Assembly (NCBI RefSeq): GCF_011745625.1 | Contig: NW_027191475.1 | Coordinates: forward strand, 1 to 64,000 | Direction: 5' to 3' | Length of the DNA: 64,000 nt | Source of the DNA: Cladosporium halotolerans | Lineage: Eukaryota | Position numbers and translations under genes: made by a program | The notes under the pieces: model-generated | Databases searched by the model: none | What the model saw: only the letters and a program-made list of their open reading frames with translations | Told to the model about the DNA's origin: nothing | Part shown: positions 4,003 to 61,804 of the stretch, piece after piece | Position numbering within the stretch: position 1 is the stretch's first letter | Layout of the letters: each line of letters opens with the position of its first letter

Positions 4003-7000
4003 GACTGTAGGTTTGGAGGCACCGTGCAACATTAAGCAAAGATTATGTAGGGATCGTGAAATATGAACGTCGCGTCGTCAAGGTCGTGAGGCGATGGGTT
4101 TAGTGTACAGGTGGGGTCGTCCGATGCCAGGATGTCTCGGTAGATGAACGAGACGAGACCCAGGCTTCAGCAGTGAGGCAGAAGCGGAAAGTGAGTAATC
4201 GCAAACGTGGAATCTGCAGAGCCGTCAGCAGAGGGGCGAGGATGCATTAGAGTTCATGAGGCTGACGGACTTTTGGTGGAGCAGCGGGCAGGTGTTGTGT
4301 GGAGGGGATGGGTGGATGCGGAGGCGACTATACACTGGATGGTGGTGGTGGTGATGTGTACACTGCATGTACAGCGAGGCTTGCGACGGGAGGTATGAGA
4401 GGCCTTCCAGGTGCCGGCCGGCGAAGGAGGAAGAAAGAGTAAGCAGGCGGGCAGCAGGCGGCGTGGTTATGTACGAGGCGGCAAGCCAGGCGGGCGGTGG
4501 GCCCTGTGCAAGGTCAAGCCAGGCAGCGCCGACAGGCTCCTGTGCTCGAGGGCGAGCGAGCAGAAATGAGGTGCGCGCCAGAGGATGGCATGGACGAGCG
4601 GCGAGGGGCGCGCGATCTGGCGGACTGCTATGGAGGAGGAGAGTTTGGAGGTGAGGGCGGCAGCGGAGGGCATGCAAGGGACGCGGCAGCCGAGATGGCG
4701 TGGAATGGAGGAGCGGCGCGCACGCATGTACATACAAAGACGAGCCTGGGGCGGTGGTGCGGTCGCGTGCGCGCGGGAATGGAGGGGCGAAGGGAGAGAC
4801 AAGACGAGACGATACGAGACAGGACACGGCGGCGGCGGCGGGCAGGCCTGCAGACGTGCACGACTACATAAGTGACGGGTGCCGTGGACGTCGGCGCAGG
4901 CGTGGCCGTGGGCGTGCTGTGCTAGGGATGTGTGTATGTGTGTACCTCCTGTATGTATGCGTGTGCTGCCGCCCTACATGCCATATCGCTGCTCCACCGC
5001 CGCTCGACATCTGCTCATCTGCTGCTGCTTCACCCGGCGAGCCATCCTCCACGCCACTCTCTACTCCCGCCAGGCCATGTCATCTCATGGCAATTCCAGA
5101 AGTGCAGGACGGGCGGCGGCGGATGGGCACAGGGTGCAGCAAACGGAGCGGTGCGCCGGCAGCCCCAGACCGGGCAGGGCGCTTGCCGTGAGCCTAAGCC
5201 CAACAGGCACTGTCAAGCGTGCTGCTGTCGAAGGCTATACCGCACTACACCACCCAAGCGCCCGTTCGCCCTCCGGCAAGGCGTCTCTAGCGTGCGCCTA
5301 ATCCGGCGTGAAACGCGCCTCGCCCGCCCGTCCAAGGTACAGACACCACCTCAGCCTCTTGGCCGCTGACCACTCCACGCCCGCCTCTGCCAGCGCTCGT
5401 CGGGCACCACGCCCATGCCCACGCCCACGCCCACCGCGCTCTCACGTGTCGCCCCCAACACTGCTTGCTTGCTCACCGGCCGCTGCAGCACTGCACTCTG
5501 CACACATGCAGTCGCAGTCTGGCACCCGCGCAACGGCCGCCTGCTGGACTTCGGTCGGACCTGTCTGCACACGCCCGACCAGGTACTGCCAATGACTATC
5601 TCGACTCGCACTCCCGCCCGCCAGCTCCACCGCCGCCCTCCAGCACACACGCCCACACGCCCCCATGTCCCTCCGTCCAGCCCAGGCCCGCGCAAGATCC
5701 GGCTGCCACTTCATCCTTCGCTTGACCGCTCTTTCCCGCGCCGCAAGGCTGATGCGCTTCCGTCGCCCGGCGCATCGCCCTCGTCCAACGACTTCGCCCC
5801 GCCACGCAGCCCGTCGCATGGGCGCTGCTCGCCCTCGTCGCACAGCGTCGCCCGCCGCCGCAGCAGCAGCAGCACACAGCTTCCTCCTTGTCAGTCGAGC
5901 AGCGCGAGTGCGGAGTCTGGCGCGTCATCGTCATGCTCCGTCCGAGAGTCCTGCAGCCAGCCAGCCAGCCAGGCAGCCCCGCGAACCTACCCGTCGCGAG
6001 AAGTACTGTGAGGTAGGCCCACCGATATCTCAGACGCCCGCGCCAGCAATCCCGTCAGCGCGAAGCAATCACCGCCGCGCGCGTCGTTTGCTCTCGCGTC
6101 GCGGACGCAGGGCAAGGGCTATCTCGGTTCCGTCGCCCGGCCGCGTCGCGGCGTCTGCCTTCCCCAAAATCAGCCCCCCATGCAACCCGACCCGCAGCCA
6201 CCCGCTCATTCCGAACCACTGGGAAGCCCGGGGGCCCTCATGACTTCTTTCCCCTCGTGTTGCGATGACGATCGGGGCTGGTTTTCGGTTCCGCTGCTGC
6301 TGCTGCTGTTGCCAGCCGCATGGCGTTTTTGGTGGTCGCTTGCTCTTTGCCGCTACGTAGTGACGTGCAGTGCGGTGCGGCCTGGGGCAGGCTTTCTTGG
6401 GGTGCAGGCGGGTGATGCGTGCATTTTGAGTAGGAACCTTGCCTCGAGTAGGCTGTGAGGCGTAAGAGCTTGAAGATCCGTGGAGGATCAGGGCCCTGCT
6501 CCAATGCGCTGCGTAGGTGGTAAGTGGTGACATGCGTCGCTCTAACTTGTATCTCAGGCTTTGCAAGCAAGACAGATGTGACTCGCGGAGTTTGATGTCA
6601 AAAGCAGTAAGTTCGTTCTCAGACGTGCCTTTACGATTCAATGATTTTTGTGAAGGTCAAGTTGCTGGCCTACCATAGGGCAATGGAACGTTCATGTGCG
6701 GTAGGGCCTTGTTAGACTTGCCTCACGCTCGACATGTTTCGTCTCATCGAGCGGGGTCCTGCATGCATGGGTACTTCGAAATTGCCTCTTCGATTTCACG
6801 CCTATGACGACGATTCGGAAGGATACACTCAAGAGAGAGTTGGGTTGTACCTTCAGGAAATCAACATTCCATTCTGGAGGGTAGATGGTGAAACTCGGGG
6901 AAGACTCCGACGCTTCGCACCGCGTTCGATGTCAAGCACCAGTGACCTCGGGCTGCATCTAGTGATCACAAAGTGTTTACATGAAAGACGTTTCTCAGTG

Positions 7001-49786: not shown

Positions 49787-50559
49787 GGTCGATTGGAGGC
49801 GCGTGGCAGTCCGGGTGGGTTGGTTGGCTTGGAAGTTGGTGAGAGGATTTTTCTGCCGTGTGCAAGCGCTCCAATGGTATAGCTGGCGCAGCATATGGTG
49901 TGGAGATCGGTTTTGCAGGGAAGGACTGAATGGATCTTGGATGGTGGATTCAAAGTTCACAAGAAAGTCCAAAAGATCGGCAACGGACATGCAGCGCGAG
50001 TCATGCGGCGGCATCCTCGATCCTTCATCCCAATCACGCCCCTACTTTCGAAGCCACAGCAATGCTAATAAGTACGGTCGCTTGCCTTCTTGCAGGGCAG
50101 TTTCAGCGTTACCTCCGCCATTGGTACATTCGCGCCAAAACATGTTGACGAAAAGCGCTGCATCATGCTGGAGCTCCTGAATGGGACTTATGCCTATCAC
50201 ATCGATCAAAAACGCGATCCTTTGGCTGTTCCTATCCGTCCATTTCTCTATTCGCACAACTGATACTGGGCTGTAGAATTGTACCACAATGGGACTACCA
50301 GAGACTGGTCATCAAGTGCACCGACTCCCGTCGGGTCGAATCAAGAATCTACCTTTTGATTGCAGTCTGTGAAATGGCCCTGGCATCTAGGTCAACAGTA
50401 GTTCTGGATCATGAAACACGCATCCAACAAGGCAACGCTTGGATGAACTGGAATCTCAGCGGGTACGCTACACTCACAAGCCCCGCTCCCTTCGCCATCG
50501 CCCCTAAGCCCCCTACATCTCGTCCTCTTCCTCGCTCTCGGCGGGCACAGGCCGACGAA

Positions 50560-51320
50560 CACGACCTTCTAAGGTAACCGTGCCATGTATGACAAAGGAT
50601 GACAAGGGTCAAGATGATAACCCTGTCGGCTGTAGTGAGCTCGCGGTGTCGGGGCGACCAAGAGTTGGAATGCCTGATGCCTGATATCATGACGCCGGTG
50701 TCTGGAACTGCTTCAAAGTCCGAAGTCGACGACAGCGGATAACAAAACAGGTGTTTGCAGCCAATCCTGCCGTGAAGGCGCTCAGCTTCTGTGAAAAGAC
50801 GCGCTTGACCCCGGTCATAGCCACATCCTCGCCAAATATCCGCGACGGCTACATCGACTCCCTAAAACCAAATATCGCCCACTGAGGCAATTCTCGATTT
50901 CTCTCCATTGCTCGCTCTCCCACCCGCCCGACACTCTTGTTTGTGAACGAACAGCTGTACCGCCGAACGGCAGTCCTGGCGCAAATAATCCTGGAGTTCG
51001 TTGCGCGATGAAAATTCGCAGCTGCAGCTCGTGCAGGTAACGGCTGGTGAGACTGCCTGGCTGTCGATTCCTGGGATGTTGACGTGGAAGCTACAGTCGT
51101 CTTCGGTGGGCTCCTCCGCCTCTGCAGCATCGTCGTGGTCCCGCGGATTCAAGGTCCCCAACAGCAAACACGACGACACGATTATCTGCCAGGCCGGCAT
51201 ATTCTGGCTTACAGCTACCAAAGTTCCGAAACCAGTGACTGCAACTACGCCTCCGACCAAGACGTCGGCCGACAAATTCACAAGAGCTGCTTAGCGCTTC
51301 GACTTCGATTGAACCTATGA
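50560..51320 (-). pseudogene. Decayed relic with a C2H2/C2HC-like zinc knuckle, possibly Ty3/Gypsy gag-pol derived
   Basis: CTSCSCEFSSRNELQDYLRQDC at 50970-51035 after an acidic stretch. The frame is broken by stops on both sides. Confidence 0.35.
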
Positions 51321-52214
51321 AGTCTAGCCACGACTACTAATGAAATTTGGTGTTTCTCTATATATAGGATTAGCCAGGTCGTCATGGCCAGGACTCTCTG
51401 TCGTCGTTGAACTTCCTCCGCGTACCGCGCACCTTGGCTGCTGGGCCGCGAGGCGACGGTACGCCCGTCACATCCTCAGGTTGCCTGGTTCCAAATGCAA
51501 CACCAGTGCGCTACGAGTAGCTCTGCTAGCTCCGCGGTCGCCGAGTCGACCTTCGTTTGCGGGAGTGCGTACCGGACCCCTAAGTCGGTTTCTAATCGAC
51601 TACGTTCCCTAGGCCATTACTTCCGGCAGCATGACTCGACAGTGGCTCGGTCCCGGCCTCGTTCTTTTGCACGCGACGCTACACCGCACCCGTCGTCGCA
51701 CTCCTCGCCGTTGTGCCCCTTTCTGACCCCAACGCCGACTTAATCGACGACTTCGATGCGTATGAGGACGAGGAGGTCGACGAGAACGAGCCGCGGCGAA
51801 TACGAGTCTGCGAAGCTGCCTCGTCAGTGCCTGCAGTCGCCGCCGACTACGCATGTCGAACCCCAGTCCTGCCGAGATCTCACTTCTGGCCAGCCTCCTG
51901 ACTCACAATGAGCCCGCCCTGACCCTACGCCTAGACCGCGCTCCTAGGTCGAACCACCAGCCGCCTTCAGCTATGGAGATGGAAGATCTGGAGGGACCTC
52001 AGGATAACGTGATGTCGCCGTCCGAGATGGCGCACCGCCGTCGCGCTGGCCTGACCCCGGCTTCACTTCTGGCCCCGCCCGTCTCCCGCGGCACGTGTCC
52101 GGAGAGACTTCGTCCGATGCTAGATATGGCTTAGGAGGTTTTGATTCTGGGACTTGAAGATGGTTCCGATGAGTTGCCATGAGAGCACAAAGCTTCTTCA
52201 AGGAGTGCGGCACC

Positions 52215-52847
52215 TGTTACGGAACGTTCTAGCTTGGCAGCTTAGCTTGCTAGATAGCCGCGCCCTCTGGTAGCCACTTACAGATAGGTGGAGCGAAATT
52301 TGGGCCAGGATCGATTGACGATTGATAGGCTGATTGATTATGCCCACCTCCGACCAGAGGATCTGGCGTAGTACGAGAGTCCTAGCACTTACATGATGGA
52401 CGAGCCGAGCTCGAAGAGGCCTATAGGTTAACGGTAGTCGCTAATCAGGCTAGCAATTCCTTAGAGACTAGGATTGGTAGCATCTTTGTCAAAGACAAGA
52501 CGCTATCCTATTCAACGTCCCCTTTGTGGCTCAGTCGCACACTCTATAAGTTGATCGGCAATTCATTCATGGACTGTTGCGAAACAACTCTATTATGTAG
52601 CCTACCTCACCTTAGCCTCCGCCTTAACTAAGCTAACCTTTCTTGGGACCCATTCGCAGACCACCGCGCTTTAAGATCGTAGACCCAAAGGCACTTATTC
52701 ACTTGTGACGCCTGGATACTAGCATTACCATCAATCTCCGGCTTCATCTTGTAAATGTAGTTTCTGACCAGGCAATCTCTCCATCACGACACACGACACT
52801 TCAAGTTGTGTGCTTGAGGCTTTCTTTTCTTACTGATTATGGTAACA
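52215..52847. mobile_element. Solo-LTR-like element
   Basis: Begins TGTTAC (52215) and ends GTAACA (52847), a perfect 6-bp inverted terminus. No ORFs; TpA-rich. Shares motifs with 1-299. An alternative right end is ACGACA at 52791/52798. Confidence 0.5.
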
Positions 52848-52909
52848 ACCAATCGACCAATGAATCGTCAACTCTTGCAAATCTGAACTACTAGTCTACA
52901 AACCTGTAC

Positions 52910-53090
52910 CAATCAATCGAACAATGGCCAAAACCCTTTGACTGGTTGATTGTGTCAATCTTGGCCTCCGGAGGCCTTCGATGTCATACCAATAGTCATC
53001 GCACTAGAAACAAGTGATCTCCACTGAGATACTTCTTGGTCTCTCTCAGTGGCACTTGTCCTACTCAATAGGCCAAGGTTGATGGTATGA
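52910..53090 (+). ncRNA. Candidate structured RNA / fold-back block
   Basis: Stems 52910-18/52944-52, 52955-67/53070-82, 53010-16/53053-59, 53021-29/53044-52, and crossing stem 52984-91/53083-90. Confidence 0.35.
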
Positions 53091-53236
53091 GCTTCATGAA
53101 CATTCAGACGGCGTCTTCTGGATCGGACTTAGAATCTATGGGAAGATCTGGTGCCTTCTCTCGCCCCGCAGTGCTGCTACCATCGAGTTCCGTGACAGAA
53201 AGCGGAGGGCACCCATTGAGTCAGTTTCAAGAGCCC

Positions 53237-54492
53237 CTCAATGGTAGCACTCCATTGTCTGAGACCGGTAGCAATGGGAGCAGCTTGAGGGGAGCGGAGA
53301 CGATGTCAGATCTACCGGAATTTCTCTGAGTCCAAACGAGCTGGATCGCTCTCTCTCGATGAATGCACCCCGTTTTCTCTTACTAGCAGCGACGGGAGCA
53401 CCTCCACGGAGACATAGATGCTCTCGAATCCACTGGGTTTTCTCTAAAGCTGCTGAACCAGATCATGATCTCTCGTCGGCGCTAATACGGCTTCTGTAAA
53501 TGGCAACGATGGAAGCACCTCCACGGGAATAGAGATGCTGTCATATTCCAATGAAATCTCTAAGTCCAACAAGCCAAATCGCTATCTCTCGATGGGTCCT
53601 ACACGCTTTCTGTAAATGGCAGCGATGGGAACACCTCCGAAGGGTACGGAGATACCGTCAAATCTGTTGAGATTTGGCTAAGTCGAATGAGCTGGACCGC
53701 TATCTCTCGATGGACCGAACACGATTTGTGTAACTGACAGCGATGGGAGCACCTCCGAAGGGAACGGAGATGCCGCCAAATCTGTTGAGATTTGGCTAAG
53801 TCGAACGAACTTCACCGTTATATCTCGATGGGAGCACCCTATATTCTGAGACCGTGAGCGATGATAGCACCGCCACGGGGATAGAGATACTGTCAGAATG
53901 CACCAGAATTCCTCTAAGTCAACGAATGAAATCGCCGTTCCTCAATGGGACCAGACCGGTTTCTGGGATTACAATACATGGTAGCACCTCCAAGGGCGGA
54001 AGAGAAAGCAGTTATCACATGCTGCGATGACTGAGATTTGAGATATTCTTTGGAGTATCTCGGCGGAGGCACCCCATTCTCTGAATTTGACAGCGATGTT
54101 AGCACCACCAAAGGGAGGGAGAGACCAAGTTTCACGTGGTAAATTGCCCTAAGAAAGGGAAATCTTGGAGCCTATCTCAAAGGAAGCACCCCAGTTTCTA
54201 AGACCGGCGGTGAGGGTAGCACCTCCAAAGCGCAGGGGAGTGTGCGTTTCACATGAAAAATGGCCATATTACAGAGGAAATATTGAGCATACCCAAAGAC
54301 AAGCACCTCGTTTTCTGGGACGGGCGCTGACGGTAGCACCTCCAGGGCGCGGGAGAGATGGATTATCACATGACAAAGCGTACAATACATTGAGTCTTTT
54401 TGAAGATTTCCTCCATGAGAGCACCCTGTTTTTTGAGACGGATGCCGATGGTAGCACCTCCAAGGAGAAAGAGAAGTCGGGTTTCACATGGA
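53237..54492. repeat. Tandem array of 11 diverged 116-118 bp units, each with two GATGG(T/G)AGCAC boxes
   Basis: Box-2 AGCAC(C)TCC-like cores at 53279, 53397, 53514, 53630, 53748, 53866, 53983, 54101, 54218, 54335, 54453. Confidence 0.9.
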
Positions 54493-54601
54493 AAACACAG
54501 GTGCACATGTCAAATTCAGAGAAACAGAAGGCTTCCCTGCCTTCACTTTATTAATCGCGAGCATATCTACGTGCTCGCTCGTCACATGCCTATCTACGCC
54601 C

Positions 54602-56862
54602 TCACTCGTCACGTTCATCTCCATCGTCTTCTCCGTCCTCACTCTCCTCGTCGTCATCCCTCGCCTTGCGCTTCTGGCCAGGCCGACCCAGCAACACCTG
54701 AGAGCGCACCCTCTGCGCCCACCCGCGACCCCTGCGCGTCGCCAGACCTTGCCCGCCGGTCTCGTGCCACTCCTTCCGCAGACGATCGACCAGGGATTGC
54801 ATCCCTGTCTCGCTGCGGGTGGCACCGAAGACGCGGTTGAACTCGAGCAGCAGGTCTGGGATCTGCTGCAGGGGCCGCTCCCCCTGGGTCTCGTTGACCC
54901 TCTCCATCACCCACTCCCTCTGCTCGCGCGTGTAATCCTCACGCGCGGTGGTGCGGAGCGCCGGCCACTTCCCGCGCTGGTGCGTCTGCTCTCTGTGCTT
55001 GTTGAGAGCAGCGACCTTGTTCGCGTCGCCCCAGTTCATGGTGGCGGCGTGCGTCCACTTCTTCCAGCCGCGCGCGCCGTAGCACCAGAACTTGTGCGGC
55101 TCGACCACATTGACGTGGCAACGAGAACGGTCGATGGTGATGCGCCGGGTGCCTTCGACGCGCGTCGCGTAGTTGGCGTTCTCGCCGCCGGTCTGGTCGT
55201 GTGGTCCACCAGGCTGCCCGTTGGTGGGGTCGTGTTGAAGGCCGCCCGTTGACTGGGCGGATGGAGGAGTGGGCGCGTCAAGCGCGCGAGGGCCAGCGGG
55301 CGTCGGCGTCGCAGGCTGGGGGGAGGAGACAACAACCATCTCGAAGAGTTGCTGTTGCGTTGCCGTTGTCATGAACGGCTGGTTCGGATCCATATCTCCA
55401 GGGATCCAGACAAGATCGATCTCTGCAGTGAGATCTTCGCGTCCCTCCGAGACGAACGACTCGCGAAGACGGTAGATCTGCTCAGCCGTCGGGTGCTCAG
55501 GCAGATCGCGACTGCCGCCAAAATTGATGGCGGCGAGACCCTCGTCGGAGTCTTCTCCTCCCTCGGTCAAGAACCGCCAGGTGCCATGTCCCTGCGGTTG
55601 TTCGATCGGGTTGCGGAACCTTCTATCGGGCCAGAACACAACGAAGGGGCCAGCGTTGGTGCCGAACCCGTGTGGAAGATCGCCTCGCATGCGTGCATTG
55701 TTGACCTCGTTGGGCGTGTTGAAGCCCAACTCAACGGCGCTTTGGTGATCGTAGGTCGGGTCGAGGAATGTAAGTCTCCCAAGGCCCCAAACATTGCGCG
55801 ACGGATTAACGATACCGCCATGCTCCCTCGCCTCTTCAACCTCGTCGGTGCGATCTCTAGGAACGCGACGGGGTGGTGAAGCCATCGGTGTCTGTTGAGG
55901 GAGAGGCAGCGCGTTAAGGTCCCCGATCACGGCTCTCGGGAGGTGAGTTTCACGCTGCGGGTGATTGCTTTCCCAGCGGTAAGACGCCAGCATTCTCTGC
56001 GGCGTGAACGAACCGGCGACCGATCCGTCGAATTCTTCCATCCATTCAATCTCCATCGCATCGGTCGTTGGGAGGTCCAGGCCGTTGATGTCGCGTCTCA
56101 GCTGTATATGGCCGCTTGGCAACACGACGATGACAGACTCCATGCCTTCGACGTTCGTAGCTGGAAAGCGACGTGCTAGATGCGGCTGCCTCTGCTCGAC
56201 ATTGCCCAACGTATACGCGCCGTCGTGGCCCGAGTTAGGGATTGGGTACGCAGGTGGAAAGGGATACATGTGGTCCAGATAGCCAGGGACTGGAACCACG
56301 GTACTGCTTGCCTGATTATCCAACCCAAGTACGCGAGATTCCGCGTCGTCCTCGAGCATCATAATATGACTCGGGCGTAGGAACCAGCAGGGAAGGCCAG
56401 AGTGACGAAGGTACTCTTGGTACCAGTCCTCGGTGTAAGGCGGCGGGTCGTTCGCATCTCCGTCGCGCCGAAATTGCCGAGTCCAGGTCCCGTCTGCGTG
56501 ACGAACGGCGACCATATCGGGCGGCGTGAGGAGGACAAACGACCTTTCGTGGCCGTTTTCGTCGCGGTATCGGCTCACGTAGCCCTCCGGGCGCCTACTT
56601 AGCTCCGCTAGATTACGGCGGTTTTGAAAGCGGCGGGCGTAAGCAACTAGCACCTCAGGGCTCTCGGTAAATCGCACTGTATCTGTTAGCGTTGATGACT
56701 ATCGAGGGGCCTTTGACACATACCCTCGAGGCCTTCAAGAAGATAGCCGAATGTTGCTTCCGGCGTAGCAGGCGGGCTGTCGTTAGCATTGCCTTGATTG
56801 TTATTGTCATTGTCGACTTGATCCCCGGTCGCACGGCTGGGTTGATCGTTCGGCGCCGCCAT
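54602..56862 (-). CDS. Orphan nuclear protein with C-terminal Myb/SANT- or HTH-like domain; intron 56677-56723
   Basis: Exon 1 MAAPNDQPS...YLLEGLE joins the 691-codon ORF via GTATGT...CTAAC...CAG. The C-terminus is MNWGDANKVAALNKHREQ...YTREQREWV...LLLEFNRVFGATRSETGMQSLVDRL, then KRKAR (NLS-like) and an acidic tail. Minus-strand AATAAA at 54547-54552. The domain call is by eye. Confidence 0.75.
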
Positions 56863-59800
56863 CTCAGCGCTGTCGCGGTTGCTGGTGTTTGTTGTACCGC
56901 ACAGGTTGCCGAGAGGGAGTCGAGGATCGTACATGCGCTGTCGGCACGACTACGTTGACAACAAAAGTGCAGCCACAGGGAGGGTGGACGTGACTGTGCG
57001 ATGTTGGCAAAGTATGTGGAGGTCGTGGTGCAGGCAGAGGAAAGTAGGCGGACGGAGGGTCGGTTGGGAGGTTGAACAACAAACGGACGCAGTTGGAAAG
57101 CACAGGACTCCTTGAGCACGATCGCGTGCTAGTGAATGACAACGGGAAAGCATCTGACTTCGGCTTGACAAGGTTCCGGACGGGTGAAGCGTTTGCCTCG
57201 TGAAAATTGTGAGTGAAGTCTGGCGCGTCCAGAGGACTTTATTCACTGTAACTCTAACCCTCAATCCACACGCGCTGTCAGCTGTAACAAGGTTGAACGA
57301 CGAAGCAGACTTACACGTATCGACTAGTTAATCGAATGCTGCTCAAGTTATAGCTAGCTTGCACATTTTTCAGGATACTGCAAGTGTAATAGACGGCTTG
57401 TACGTGTTGCAGGACACCACACATGATATAGCCAACTTGTATGTGTTGCTAGATGCTACACATGTTTGTCGCTAACTTGGAGATGTTAAGAACATCTTGT
57501 GGGTCTTCCAAGATGCTTTGGGACCGAATCTGACGTATAGGGATCTTCCATACATGCCTCAAGCAAATAGCATACACTTCCATGAGATGAAGTGGCGATG
57601 GCGGACTTAGACAAAGGGGCAAGCTGCGCTGAAACAAAGATCAAGAATGGGCTGCATTAGGACTTTCATGATTCACACCTCATGGAAGAGCGGTCTCGCG
57701 GCAAGTGCGAAATAGATGACAAACGCTTCACTACGGACTGTCAGCCAAATGGCGGATTGGGCGAACATAACTGAATAGTGGGGATGGGGCAAGTGTCAAC
57801 GCTACAACAAGCAATTTTGGCAGAATTGAGAAGTGAATATGTCCGCAGATACGCAGGCTTCCGCTCCAATTTGTGTGCCTTTCAGCTCGCAGTCAAGTGC
57901 TGAATCCATTACATGGTGAACAACAGCCTAGTTGGCCGCGAATGTGCGAAGGACGCCTCTCCCGGTGGTAGAGTGGATTGACGAACGTCCCATCTGTTCG
58001 AAGAGGTAGGGATTTGATAAACTCAAGCTTTGGGGCCGCATTTCAGATTGAGAAGGCGGTTTGCACAGTGTTTGTGATATAACAGCGTATTGTTCGTAGA
58101 TGTGAAGTCGAAATCCTCGGGGGAAGCTGAGAGCGATTGCCGAGCACTGACCGAGCGCGCGCGGACAACAACACCATCGTTGTCCCTAGCACCAGACCCC
58201 GCCCATGCCAGGAAAGCTACCAATATCCCCTGCTTCTGATGCATACATTAGGGCGGGGACCTCTTTGCAAATGCTCTTCCGAGCCAAAGACTGACGCGGA
58301 AGAGCTAGACGCGCTGGAATGTGAATTGAGTTTACTGTTGACAGTATGATCACAATGCAGGGAGGTTTTTCTCGGATTCCAAGACCTTGACGCTATGCAG
58401 CACGCGGTTTGCCGTTCCGATGCTGGCTCATCGCCATGAACCACGCTCAACCCTCAGCTTGCGACTGCCGTGGAAAGCCAGCGACAATGGAGAAAGACGC
58501 CCACATCAAAGCCACCGGTCCATCCGATAATGGATGCCCGTTCACGCTCAAGATACCAACAATTGTGTCAAGCCCCCTGATACATGCGAGCTGGGCTTCT
58601 ACGGCACCTCGTGAAGTGCTGAGCTGTAAGAAGAGCCTGGGAAACATTAAAGAGACGTATGAGCGTCGGAACATGCGGAACAATGGCCTGAGAGGACAAA
58701 GGTTATATTGAAGACGTTTTTGGCGACTCCAAGGTTCCTTCGTCCGCCCAAAGCAATCGCGTTTCGAGGCGCTGGGTTGGTATAACAAAGGCACAGTACG
58801 TTTCTTCCCCGCTGTGATGGTGGGACTTGATGTTTCAGCAAGATAGTCTCAAAGGTATCAGCTGTCTGTTGGTGAGGAAGGTGGAGGAAGAGCTTTGTAG
58901 TGGACGTGATTAACGTGCAGCCGCCTTTCACAGAGGCTTTAGAGATTGGAGCATAGCCGTACAGTTGTTGGAGCACAGATGTGTAGTTATTGGAGCTAAG
59001 AATCTGGGTGGTCATTCCGTGCTGAAGAGCCTCATATTGCTGAATGGCGTTGCAGAATCTACAAAATCGTAGGCATTCACAGCAAATTCATTCTGAACTC
59101 CTCGGATCGGCCGCAAACTCTGCGACGGCAGTTCAAGCTCAGTTTCACCGTTTTCAGGAGGTTACAGAGACTCAGGTTGCATACCAATATTACTTCCATC
59201 CGTTCCTGGCGGGTTTGGCCAGATCTTCCTCGGGTTCTAGCCGCCAAAGGTCGAAGGGCCCTCTCTGCGCCTTCTTTCCAGGCATTTGGGCAGCTTCTCG
59301 CTCGACCCCTCTTCTCCAAACCTCGTTCACAGCAATTGCGGTGCCAGAACACCGTGTATCAACACAGAGAACATGGAGGCTTAGCCAGCAGTTCATGCCT
59401 TCAAGGGGCTGTAAAATAGGTCACTGGCGAGCATTGCCTCTGAACCTCCCAAAGAAGAAACGAGGAAATTGATACTGACAAGTCAGTCACTCGACCTTTC
59501 TGCTCTCTGGCTACATTTACAGCCTTCTTGGCGTTGAACCACATGTAAGAGGTAAGGGTTTTCCAAGCGGCCGCAGTGGCTCTCATCACCGTACATCCGT
59601 CTCTCGACTCCACACCTATAGTGCGAACGAAGAGATCCAACCGAGAGCATTGCTCTGACCAATTTCGCTTCCCAGCGGCCCAGAATGCTGCTCCAATCAC
59701 CGGTCAGAGCGCTATCTATGCGTTGACAACGAAACTTCATTGCCACGGAGCTGCGGAAGCAAGGGAGCAAGTGGTACTACCGGCAAAAGCGAAACGAGGA

Positions 59801-61804
59801 AGCAGTACAAGGCATTTCCTACAGAGAACACCATGACCGAATGTTGCTCGCATCGATAGAAGGCACCGCTCGAGCTTTTAAGAGGCGTAGACAAAGGTAC
59901 AATATGTCAGAGACAATTAGGGCAGAATACACAGCAGTAATCGGCAAATGATCATTCCATCGCAATATTGAGTGAGTACCTCATTGGTCGCTAAAGAGGC
60001 CGCGGGGTTCAGACATTAGAGCTCTGAATCTTATTGATCATCTGGCGAGGTGATGCACATTCAACAAGGGAAAGCTCTTCTCCAGCGACAGACTTCGGCC
60101 AGAGCTCCCCTATTTCGAAAGTGAACCATCTCAACGAAACGCCCTTCTTTACGTTCGTCGGCAAAAGACCATCACGCCCTCAAACCGACATTAAACCCGC
60201 ACAGGAGTGCCCTCAGCCAACAACCCAGGTCCCTTCGATCCATCTCCACTGGCCAAACTCTTCCTCCGTAGTTCGTTTATCAAGGCAGCACCATGCGCCA
60301 CGCGTTCACAAATGCCGCCTTCTCAGAAGCTTCCTCCTGTTCGCCGCACACAGGCCTTGCAAGCAAATTCCTGCTTTCCACTGTTGAGAGTCCACATGTG
60401 GCAACGGTCCGAAGATCAAAGAACACAAGAGCTAGACAATGAAGATAGGACGGAGAAAGAGGATGGGGGAGTACAGACTACGGCGCCGGGAGGCTAAAAG
60501 CACCAGGTGGCACTGTGGCGAGAAGGCAAGCCCTCTAGATGATTCCGTGATAAAACAAGGTTGAGGCTTCTGCTTCTCTTGAGCCGCAAGGGCTCTGTCG
60601 AGGCGCTCATGGCCACCACCAAATACCAATCGGTGGATCAGGCGTGGGGGAAGAAAGGCCCTCAAGGCATTACAAGATGCAATTCACTGTGAACAATATC
60701 TGCTCGCGGTCCGCAACCCATTCGCCTGCCGTGGCGAAAGTGCATCATCCTCATGCTCGATCTTCCGGCAACCATGAATCCAGTCCACGCGCGAGGGCAA
60801 CAGCAGACTTTTTCGATGGAACACGATTCACAGGTCGCGCTTCTCCCTCATACCCTTGAAAAGTTTCGTTTCGAACGACAAAGACCCTCGGCTGTTGGCC
60901 CGCGAAGAAGACACCAGTATCCGCAGGGACCTCTTCCTCATATGCCCTGCGAGCGCACTCTGTCTTCGTTGGCGGAGAGTTCAGGATTAAGAACTTCGAA
61001 TAGACCGCCGCTGGAAACACATTCTGGCCATACTTGCTAGCCTCACAGCTGAAACCAGCAACGCTAGGATCCCCTTCCCGATCCATGTTCTTGAACTTTC
61101 GGAAAGATTGAAGAAGTGAGGACGCAGCGAGCCTCCACAATTTAGGGGCACTACAAAGCTTTATCAGAAGTGCAGAGGCCAGACCAGTAGAAACCAGACC
61201 ACAATATTACAAGATATCTCTGAGCAAGCTCTTACCTCTGAGCACTTGCGAGCTGCCGGCGTTCCCGGTGGTATTGTCCAGCCCATCGATCTGCACATGC
61301 TGGGCAACCTTTGCTCCACCTGACTGGCTATGGAACAAGCGAGAATACCGAAGCCCAAAGAGAATCCTTGGGTAAGGGTGGCGGGGCCCTGGGCAAGAGA
61401 CGCAATGTCGAGGCGGACACCTTTGAGGAGGCGGAACAAGGCGGCGTCCCAATTCGCCTGGTGCTGGCAAGGAGATTCACTCCAGTCGATATCCGTTTTG
61501 GAACGTGCGTTGCGCATTTTCATTTGCTTGAGGAACCCCTGGCAAATGCCGCGCGGCTGGGAGGAAAGGGCAAGGATGGGAAAGCGAGAGGTCGGCGCGG
61601 ACCTGCTGGGCAGACAGTGTGGCAAACACTGCTGCTGCGTTGTAATTCTAAACGGGGAAAGGGGCATTGAGAATGTCAAAGGTAGGAGTGCTTTTTCTTT
61701 TATTCGTACATCGCCGGGGGCATTCTGCTGCCCAGCTCTCTTGTAATCTGTACAGGTCTAAATACACAATTCAAGGGCCATGATAATCAAGCTCAAGAGC
61801 TCCT

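Follow-up and report, generated by a model that had tools for sequence, protein, structure and literature searches.

A diverged intergenic tandem array with recurring boxes behind an orphan gene at a fungal rearrangement breakpoint

Introduction

The locus described here raises the question of whether a tandem array ending 112 nt from the stop codon of an intact gene works together with that gene, gives rise to small RNAs, or is simply the residue of local duplication. The window (the whole stretch of 64 kb that was analysed) had been described in an initial annotation as holding four contiguous elements: a multi-stem block, an inverted box read as a separate anti-repeat, an array of 11 units of ~117.5 bp with conserved boxes and variable spacers, and an intact gene for a Myb/HTH-like protein. 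These had been interpreted as a gene-array cassette or, by analogy, as a repeat-spacer guide system. All four elements are present; from the overall interpretation their contiguity, the constraint on the boxes and a weak HTH likeness of the protein survive, while the cassette and the guide analogy do not.

The answer that we put forward, tentatively and with a little less than even confidence, is that the array arose by tandem duplication in intergenic DNA, is old and specific to its lineage, and belongs to the minisatellite type, with boxes kept as putative phased protein-binding sites. Its site is a rearrangement breakpoint, and the adjoining orphan gene evolves much faster than the genes around it. 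Should the boxes prove to be genuine binding sites, a filamentous fungus would here offer a small, naturally occurring and young array of phased sites, useful for studying the origin of cis-arrays and of lineage-specific DNA-binding proteins; if it is a neutral scar, the array is ordinary.

Organisation of the locus

The features of the locus are collected in Table 1. Searched with a profile of the repeat unit (nhmmer), the stretch 53198-54490 yields 11 direct units with E values from 1.3e-27 to 3.6e-20; the next-best match in the 64-kb window has E = 1.7, and neither the unit profile nor a repeat search found a second array or further units elsewhere in it. Tandem Repeats Finder detects just the central 2.1-2.5 copies, at 78-86% matches. 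No such array appears among the matches listed for the literature on Cladosporium intergenic tandem repeats and minisatellites.

Table 1. Positions of the features of the locus within the window
Feature	Position	Strand	Basis
Block of nested inverted repeats ("multi-stem block")	52910..53090	.	folding of both strands
Outer stem, 14 bp, of the inverted-repeat block	52954-52967 paired with 53070-53083		
Twelfth repeat unit, inverted	53141..53258	-	unit-profile match and full-length alignment
Direct units, n = 11, 116-118 bp each	53198..54490	+	unit profile, alignment, box counts
AATAAA hexamer, poly(A)-signal-like (putative)	54547..54552	-	read from sequence
Exon 2 of the family gene, including stop codon	54602..56676	-	open frame; 737-aa spliced model; homologues
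Intron, 47 nt, GTATGT...CTAAC...AG	56677..56723	-	sequence; exon 1 aligns with homologue N-termini
Exon 1, begins at ATG	56724..56862	-	spliced model

Each unit carries two related boxes of ~11-17 nt, box 1 (CTCRATGGNAGCACCCC) and box 2 (GCGATGGNAGCACCTCC), which lie 33 nt apart, so that gaps of 33 and ~84 nt alternate along the array; the boxes are oriented antisense to the adjoining gene. Successive units place their boxes 118, 117, 116, 118, 118, 117, 118, 117, 117 and 118 nt apart. With at most one mismatch ATGGNAGCACC occurs 17 times in the window, of which 16 fall inside 53173-54458, against an expectation of 4.59 +/- 2.29 in shuffled sequence (none of 100 shuffles reaches 17). We know of no transcription-factor motif that the boxes match.

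The stretches between the boxes, although they had been taken for variable spacers, are diverged copies of one another. Their mean pairwise identity is 0.44 (0.53 between adjacent units), and 500 shuffles gave 0.25 +/- 0.008 with a maximum of 0.277; because the observed identity is so far above the shuffled value, the "spacers" are mutually homologous. Mean identity rises to 0.62 in a core of 62 columns. The central units are the most similar (core identity 0.84 between units 4 and 5), while units 1 and 11 and the inverted unit resemble one another, at 0.54-0.60 in the variable part.

The inverted box at 53175-53187 exists (13 nt, 92%; inverted pair I3) but is no separate anti-repeat, since it belongs to a complete unit in inverted orientation. 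A match of the unit profile places that unit at 53246..53145 on the minus strand (E = 8e-11), and it can be aligned with the direct units along its full length. It overlaps unit 1 in a head-to-head palindromic junction centred near 53228, and the sequence from 53135 to 53322 is predicted to fold back on itself as a single long, imperfect hairpin (-76.9 kcal/mol, z = -3.64).

Beside the junction lies the multi-stem block. Over 52900-53100 the plus strand folds at -65.8 kcal/mol (z = -3.96, none of 200 shuffles as good) and the minus strand at z = -2.45 (2 of 200 as good); since folding beats the shuffles on both strands, the nested inverted repeats are real, as the initial annotation had it. 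Six strain variants are displayed within the block (52957, 53014, 53047, 53062, 53063 and 53077), and mapped by hand on the predicted plus-strand structure all six hit stems, each breaking a pair. For strains X2 and X3 all 14 differences are displayed, and there is no compensatory change among them. Transposon termini were ruled out for the locus, as within 49.5-62.5 kb neither gene nor array is flanked by long terminal inverted repeats, and only two weak pairs of 72-76% occur.

RNA and coding readings of the array

The array might be transcribed and cut into unit-length RNAs, whether as analogues of CRISPR or TIGR guides or as a polycistronic snoRNA-type cluster, with the block at 52.9-53.1 kb as a leader or structured RNA. 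The two related boxes per unit recall a dual-repeat layout, block and junction fold stably, and the unit size is compatible with small nucleolar RNAs. Against this, the units have no consensus structure (RNAalifold, 0 pairs on either strand), the "spacers" are homologous among themselves, and the variants of close strains break the stems of the block uncompensated. No Rfam family is found at E <= 1 over 50-58 kb, nor at the gathering score in the whole window; the lone weak match near the block (snoR64a, 53082-53154, E = 4.5, 18.9 bits against a gathering score of 45) is at chance level. Neither the gene nor 91 island ORFs hold a Nop, Cas or nuclease domain. We regard such a transcribed origin of function as very improbable.

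The comparison with guide systems leads in the same direction. With CRISPR and its tracrRNA anti-repeat the locus shares regularly spaced conserved boxes and an inverted copy beside the array, but its host is eukaryotic, there are no cas genes and the inverted copy is a full unit. CRISPR direct repeats are near-identical, with a size range of ~25-36 nt (PMC12045711), whereas the boxes here measure 11-17 nt in a core that is ~62% conserved, and the array's "spacers" are homologous (0.44) rather than unrelated. TIGR arrays, as the same paper describes them, have 36-nt units with two alternating repeats of 8-12 nt and spacers of 9-12 nt, occur in prokaryotes and their viruses, and adjoin a Nop-domain Tas protein (PMC12045711). 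Two related short repeats per unit and a single adjoining gene are common to both; units of 117.5 nt, the lack of a Nop domain and a fungal host set the present array apart from TIGR-Tas as portrayed there (PMC12045711). With homologous "spacers", no consensus fold, an "anti-repeat" that is an inverted unit and no Pfam domain, the array is very probably not a CRISPR-like repeat-spacer guide system, and RNA evidence would be a prerequisite to pursuing that idea. That the ~118-nt unit derives from 5S rRNA or a snoRNA, as a resemblance had suggested, was rejected: no Rfam family matches in the array at E <= 10.

Equally little credence is given to a decayed coding repeat, namely a pseudogene of a Ser/Thr/Gly-rich protein of 39-residue repeats on the plus strand, in which boxes 1 and 2 would each read DGST, 11 codons apart. 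Its attractions are arithmetic (117 nt make 39 codons and the 33-nt box gap is in frame), together with a core of ~29 codons that, read in the box frame, has no stop in 10 of the 11 units, and an ATG-led frame of 85 codons running from 53072 into unit 1. Stops nevertheless occur in 7-10 of the 11 units in every unit-relative frame, near the ~9 expected by chance on our own arithmetic; the frame is lost wherever a unit measures 116 or 118 nt; conservation with period 3 is not significant (p = 0.065); and the array ORFs have no Pfam match. For a 76-residue ORF spanning two cores, no homologue turned up among proteins of comparable or larger size, which by the tool's own note is weak evidence. 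The array thus probably acts, if it acts, at the level of DNA, neither as RNA nor as coding sequence.

Divergence and constraint

The array is old: whole units share a mean pairwise identity of 0.53, so that ~47% of positions differ, and the transition/transversion ratio among them is 0.78. RIP was ruled out as the cause of this divergence (TpA/ApT 0.57; (CpA+TpG)/(ApC+GpT) 1.34). Indels are nearly absent, and unit spacing has stayed at 116-118 nt.

Conservation is unevenly distributed. There are 13 invariant columns where simulation gives 4.7 +/- 2.1, and the best window of 15 columns scores 0.889 against 0.770 +/- 0.026; in neither case does any of 1000 simulations, run under a uniform-rate F81 model on a tree built from these 12 short sequences themselves, reach the observed value. 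By this measure a neutral model with uniform rates does not account for the degree to which the boxes are conserved, and together with the fixed unit length their conservation argues against pure neutral decay. Rate heterogeneity could also be inflated by a misaligned variable part or by short-tract gene conversion centred on the boxes.

These results bear on the possibility, which we hold to be real if rather doubtful, that the array is a functionless minisatellite scar, produced by slippage, unequal crossing-over and fold-back at a fragile 3' flank. On that account uneven mutation, gene-conversion tracts or alignment artefacts would have to explain the box conservation; the excess of clustered invariant columns and the scarcity of indels in units so diverged speak against it. 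What speaks for it is the position of the array, considered below.

The neighbouring gene and its protein

The gene on the minus strand (54602-56862) encodes 737 aa in a spliced model with one intron (GT..CTAAC..AG) and no internal stop. Its stop codon (54602-54604) and its poly(A)-like hexamer were correctly placed near the array by the initial annotation: the AATAAA lies 50 nt past the stop and ~57 nt ahead of the array. Nineteen homologues were found at E <= 1e-78, the named ones from Cladosporium and Oleoguttula; since the gene has a spliceosomal intron and homologues named in these genera, the locus is fungal. Relatives at syntenic positions are ~40% identical in protein, against 77-95% for the neighbouring genes, and judged by these sequences the family is uncharacterised, Cladosporium-centred and fast-evolving.

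The protein had been called Myb/HTH-like. Residues 582-652 (AF2, pLDDT block means mostly 81-91) align over 50-70 residues to homeodomain, Myb and small-terminase DNA-binding domains at Z 5.0-6.3 (VIA; rmsd 2.1-3.5), in a range (Z < 8) that by the tool's own statement is common for such models. The likeness of the C-terminus to a three-helix domain is weak, within the noise range, and no known family was matched: Pfam-A gave no match at E <= 1 in the gene's 698-aa ORF, Myb/SANT and homeodomain-like models included, nor in the 91 island ORFs. Foldseek on the protein model returned nothing at E <= 0.001, whole-model structure searches nothing at Z >= 5 outside residues 561-659, and a PDB profile search HMGB1 as its best match (E = 0.2). 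Residues 10-440, modelled separately from 7 sequences, reach a pLDDT of 50.9, and the ESM Atlas had no usable match for the N-terminal and middle parts. The models thus weakly support an HTH-like three-helix domain at the C-terminus.

In the cassette as originally conceived, this protein would bind its own downstream array as a partition, centromere-box or terminal-binding module. The closeness of the array to the poly(A) signal, the alignment of residues 582-652 to DNA-binding domains, the apparent constraint on the boxes and the tandem duplications found near the stop codon in several related loci are in its favour. We nonetheless consider it improbable, given that the HTH match falls in a range called common and Pfam offers no DNA-binding family, that the ATGGNAGCACC box is absent from the gene's own promoter region, and that the homologues, described next, lack the array.

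Homologous loci and the breakpoint

The cassette proposal implied a neighbouring array at the homologues, and the unit family was found at 0 of 13 homologue loci (unit profile, with no locus at E < 1). Nor is the DNA downstream of the homologues enriched in matches to the window's box matrix, and in positional relatives the stop is followed directly by other sequence or by another gene. Loci L002 and L004 keep a zf-Mss51 gene upstream and have unrelated DNA downstream, whereas in L001, L006 and L007 an HSP70-like gene (at 34-37 kb in the window) is convergent just 320-460 nt past the stop, with no repeat between. The gene's 3' flank is thus a rearrangement breakpoint between lineages. Since none of the more distantly related loci has the array, whatever function it may serve must be young or dispensable.

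The same flank has been duplicated elsewhere: L002 and L003 carry a duplication of 91-96 nt and L011 an array with an ~87-nt unit. A locus's own tandem duplication lies within 600 nt past the stop in 3 of the 7 distinct loci with at least 800 nt downstream (at most two independent events), against ~3 such repeats in the remaining ~55 kb of those loci by our own count, without a formal test. In the window itself a 26/27-nt duplication spans the gene's stop codon. For an array without function, its restriction to one lineage, its place at a breakpoint and beside palindromes, and these other small duplications in the flank are what one would expect.

No common element links the flanks. A profile of the conserved 3' element of the other clade misses the array (best window match E = 4.9, elsewhere), which dismisses homology between the two. 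A box shared with the L011 array on the same strand was likewise rejected, its Smith-Waterman score being reached by 167 of 200 shuffles; on the opposite strand the score of 16 is reached by 4 of 200 and was judged insufficient, and the box matrix has 2-3 weak matches in L011.

A speculative variant, which we also think unlikely, would have gene and array evolve together as a pair: the HTH-like protein, itself fast-evolving, would bind the phased ATGGNAGCACC boxes behind its own gene as a self-regulating terminator, barrier or silencing platform, and lineages would have amplified different pieces of the 3' flank independently (a 65-nt hairpin twice, an 87-nt unit ~5 times, the 118-nt unit twelve times). 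Joint turnover of protein and cis-array would then account for 40% protein identity beside neighbours at 77-95%.

Discussion

Contiguity, box conservation and the weak HTH likeness of the C-terminus together make a DNA-level binding platform the best functional reading. Under our preferred explanation, a minisatellite-type duplication with retained binding sites, a ~118-bp piece of the gene's 3' flank would already have held a ~15-nt box in two copies. Amplification of this piece, at a site that is a breakpoint of rearrangement among related species, would have given 11 head-to-tail units, and one unit would have been copied in inverted orientation at the far end. The units would then have diverged almost to saturation while retaining two boxes each and their length. 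The result may be a phased cluster of ~24 candidate sites to which a sequence-specific DNA-binding factor would attach, lying immediately past the gene's putative poly(A) signal, with terminator, barrier or chromatin-organising element as candidate roles; binding to the boxes, and whatever effect it has, are what we infer.

Protein-binding boxes carried by repeats are familiar: alpha-satellite monomers bear the CENP-B box, and Sal-box/Reb1-type terminators are repeated behind rRNA genes and bound by a Myb-like protein. The present array resembles satellites and rDNA-spacer subrepeats, as a functional analogy only, in having diverged monomers that repeat a short conserved box at the period of the unit, and rDNA-spacer subrepeats also in lying directly downstream of a transcription unit. 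It differs from them as a single array of 1.35 kb behind an ordinary protein-coding gene, neither centromeric nor in rDNA, with candidate boxes only and with related species that lack it.

The closest parallel is with minisatellites or VNTRs, which share the ~100-bp homologous head-to-tail units at a single locus, the greater likeness of central units than of diverged edges, and the small duplications in the flank; unit number, too, may differ among relatives. The array departs from them in being near-saturated (0.53) yet fixed in unit length at 116-118 nt with two invariant or near-invariant boxes per unit, and in having one end unit inverted.

Strains bear on the same comparison. Strains X2 and X3 are collinear with the window through the array, with 14 differences in 6 kb and equal unit number, and X6, ~3.5% different, shows no unit-sized indel and again the same number. 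An array also persists in a contig of the mixed run X18 that is ~15% divergent. Such persistence, with collinearity in strains up to ~4% divergent, counts against a functionless scar, and possible unit-number variants in X18 count for one. These are contig joints with a net loss of 117 nt (one "skips 156" with 39 letters between, another "skips 124" with 7 between), where register in repeats is unreliable; on their showing unit number may be free to vary. The X18 run behaves as mixed DNA contigs, covering genes and intergenic DNA alike.

The repeat array and its inverted unit

Within the 64-kb window, the unit profile matches 11 direct copies (E = 1.3e-27 to 3.6e-20 each) and one additional copy on the opposite strand (E = 8e-11), with no further match below E = 1.7 anywhere in the 64 kb. 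The array reported in the initial annotation is real, and larger than described. The 13-nt inverted box taken there for an anti-repeat is present as well, but belongs to a whole inverted unit, which aligns over its full length with the direct units. Since it also overlaps unit 1, the array ends with the two units head to head; this junction, whose centre is near 53228, folds into a single long hairpin with imperfect pairing (z = -3.64).

Two related boxes, separated by 33 nt, occur in every unit, and box-to-box spacing is 116-118 nt across the whole array. The box ATGGNAGCACC, allowing at most one mismatch, has 17 matches in the window, 16 of them within 53173-54458 (shuffle expectation 4.6 +/- 2.3). 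The stretches between boxes are not the variable spacers originally described but are homologous across units, with a mean identity of 0.44 between units and 0.53 for neighbours, against 0.25 +/- 0.008 when shuffled. Full-length similarity among units 4-6 is 75-84%, and u1, u11 and the inverted unit (the ends of the array) most closely resemble one another, as expected of a tandem repeat that has grown or been homogenised in its centre.

Coordinates of features in the window and in metagenome loci (L numbers) that encode relatives of the family protein
Feature	Position	Strand	Remark
HSP70-like protein gene	34.0-37.1 kb		more distant neighbour
Dus dihydrouridine synthase gene	48.1-50.0 kb		neighbour
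Structured block	52900-53100
Inverted unit	53246..53145	opposite to direct units
Direct units, 11	53198-54490	plus
Longest ORF of candidate region	54602-56698	minus
Intron, GT..CTAAC..AG	56677-56723	minus	47 nt; joins ORF to ATG exon
Exon 1 with ATG	56724-56862	minus	spliced model
zf-Mss51 protein gene	62.0-63.9 kb		neighbour
~65-nt element, tandem double	L002:4632-4700 and 4728-4796
~65-nt element, tandem double	L003:1391-1459 and 1482-1550
~65-nt element, single	L004:9941-10009
~65-nt element, single	L009:1212-1280
~65-nt element, single	L011:786-854
~87-nt degenerate tandem array	L011:955-1400		four to five units; ~180 nt past homologue's stop

Age and constraint

The units have a mean pairwise identity of 0.53, have lost transition dominance (ratio 0.78) and lack a RIP signature; it is striking that indels are nearly absent among them though ~47% of positions differ. 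Sequences were simulated 1000 times along the inferred tree, with a single rate for all sites and scaling to the observed identity. Invariant columns number 13 (simulated 4.7 +/- 2.1) and the best 15-column window scores 0.889 (simulated 0.770 +/- 0.026), values that 0/1000 simulations reach, although the tree is drawn from the same short alignment and the apparent constraint could come from misalignment or from box-centred gene conversion. The array is old but appears not to decay freely. The most likely account, held tentatively, is an old, lineage-specific tandem duplication that would have arisen in a 3' flank prone to rearrangement; boxes and phasing would be kept through DNA-level action as putative protein-binding sites. 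A scar without function has almost the same probability and is a real possibility.

Close strains are collinear with the window throughout this stretch, and the array is no exception. Contigs of sequencing runs X2 and X3 carry 14 differences over 6 kb, those of X6 are about 3.5% divergent without a unit-sized indel, and one ~15% divergent contig of the mixed run X18 is still made up of array units. X6 and X18 share an insertion of 36 nt, placed between positions 51915 and 51916; in X6 the 415 nt to its left (51500-51915) are ~11% divergent, against ~3.5% over the remaining stretch, and this point marks a local divergence boundary within the island.

RNA and coding readings

That the array is processed into RNAs, like a repeat-spacer guide system, is very improbable. 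We rejected a repeat-spacer array given the homologous inter-box stretches, the absence of a unit fold (RNAalifold on aligned units gives zero base pairs on both strands) and the empty Rfam search, which returned no family reaching the gathering score anywhere in the window, none at E <= 1 in 50-58 kb, and a single chance-level snoRNA match adjoining the array (E = 4.5). Regular spacing is the sole support of the analogy. TIGR arrays are built of 36-nt units in which repeats measure 8-12 nt and spacers 9-12 nt, adjoin a Nop-domain protein and are hosted by prokaryotes and their viruses (PMC12045711), whereas the window's units measure 116-118 nt and lie in a fungus.

Nor is the array recognisably coding on its sequence. 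In the frame in which both boxes read DGST the core is stop-free in 10/11 units, as a dead coding repeat might be; yet, whichever unit-relative frame is read on either strand, 7-10/11 units contain stops, unit lengths of 116 and 118 nt disrupt the frame, conservation with period 3 does not reach significance (p = 0.065) and, as weak evidence, a homologue search with the longest two-core ORF yields nothing among proteins of comparable length or longer. We consider such an origin highly unlikely.

On the plus strand, the structured block folds better than 200/200 shuffles (z = -3.96). All six displayed strain variants inside it, mapped by hand, hit predicted stems and each breaks a pair; in X2 and X3, for which the display covers all 14 differences, the broken pairs show no partner change. 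We read the block as nested inverted repeats in DNA rather than conserved RNA.

The family gene and its protein

The window is fungal, and its candidate region holds no second long ORF. The spliced gene product has 737 aa without internal stop, and its named relatives, all hypothetical proteins, come from Cladosporium fusiforme, Cladosporium sp. NU13 and Oleoguttula mirabilis. Because 0/91 stop-to-stop ORFs (>=55 codons, Dus to Mss51, family gene excluded) match Pfam, the description of a gene-poor island is fair. Some 8 kb of island DNA (50100-53100, 56900-61800) has neither a Pfam match nor DNA similarity to the relatives' loci. Reading the sequence, we also noted a hairpin with a 7-bp stem at 54557-54578, between AATAAA and the stop, and a 26/27-nt tandem duplication across the stop codon (54560-54612, 22/26 positions alike).

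The family protein has no Pfam match at E <= 1. Searched with a profile built from 20 members, 1.84 billion representatives yield 222 clusters at E <= 0.001, and the profile resolves into three separable parts (about positions 1-230, 230-420 and 440-680). The middle part (profile positions ~235-420) recurs in much longer gene models (P0136, P0144, P0140, P0131, P0139) with C2H2 fingers, SAP, copia Gag/Pol plus Zn2Cys6, or a sub-threshold Ulp1-protease match (20.6 vs cut-off 20.7 bits); such models may be artefacts of fused prediction or reflect genuine domain shuffling. In the AlphaFold model (mean pLDDT 72), residues 582-652 align to homeodomain, Myb and small-terminase DNA-binding domains at Z 5.0-6.3 in a search against representatives, a level the structure-search tool describes as common, and Foldseek against the PDB gives nothing at E <= 0.001. 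The Myb/HTH-like label thus retains a weak fold resemblance and, with Pfam empty too, is a reasonable lead rather than a finding. A near-invariant motif, HDPTN..G.PGG.HDQTG (P0001, the window protein, residues ~489-505; about 55184-55234, minus strand; invariant P491, Q502, T503, G504), ends a stretch with pLDDT under 50; its conservation in predicted disorder suggests an interaction or catalytic motif.

Relatives' loci and the 3' flank

Across 13 metagenome loci encoding relatives, the unit profile matches 0/13 at E < 1, homologues show no enrichment of the box matrix in their downstream DNA and island DNA outside coding regions has no similarity. The proposed gene-array cassette is not supported by these results, and binding of the array by the neighbouring protein, putative in any case, is improbable.

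The zf-Mss51 gene lies upstream in the same orientation in L002 and L004 (87-89% protein identity; the spacer is 4.9 kb in the window vs 1.8 kb in L004), and an HSP70-like gene (77-79%) is convergent, 320-460 nt past the stop, in L001 and the L006/L007 pair, consistent with inversion of the window's 34-54.5 kb there. Between the family protein and these syntenic relatives identity is only ~40%, while flanking genes reach 77-95%, so the gene appears to evolve much more rapidly than those around it; very fast evolution or old divergent alleles would account for the gap. Since the downstream neighbour differs in three lineages, the 3' flank (block, palindromic junction and array in the window) is a breakpoint between lineages.

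Relatives' 3' flanks also carry small tandem duplications. In one clade of the gene family, a conserved ~65-nt element (E between 2e-21 and 5e-25 per copy against the element profile) lies 6-60 nt past the stop codon and folds into a 22-pair hairpin (-19.95 kcal/mol, one compensatory pair); it is absent from the window's gene. By our count, a duplication lies <=600 nt from the stop in 3/7 distinct loci with >=800 nt of downstream DNA, representing at most two independent events, against about three in the remaining ~55 kb of those loci. A fragile flank and recurrent selection for repeated cis elements would each account for this. On the gene strand, the L011 array has by eye an ATG-led frame of ~124 codons with 29-residue repeats, and parts of it are apparently homologous to single-copy DNA in L002, L003 and L004.
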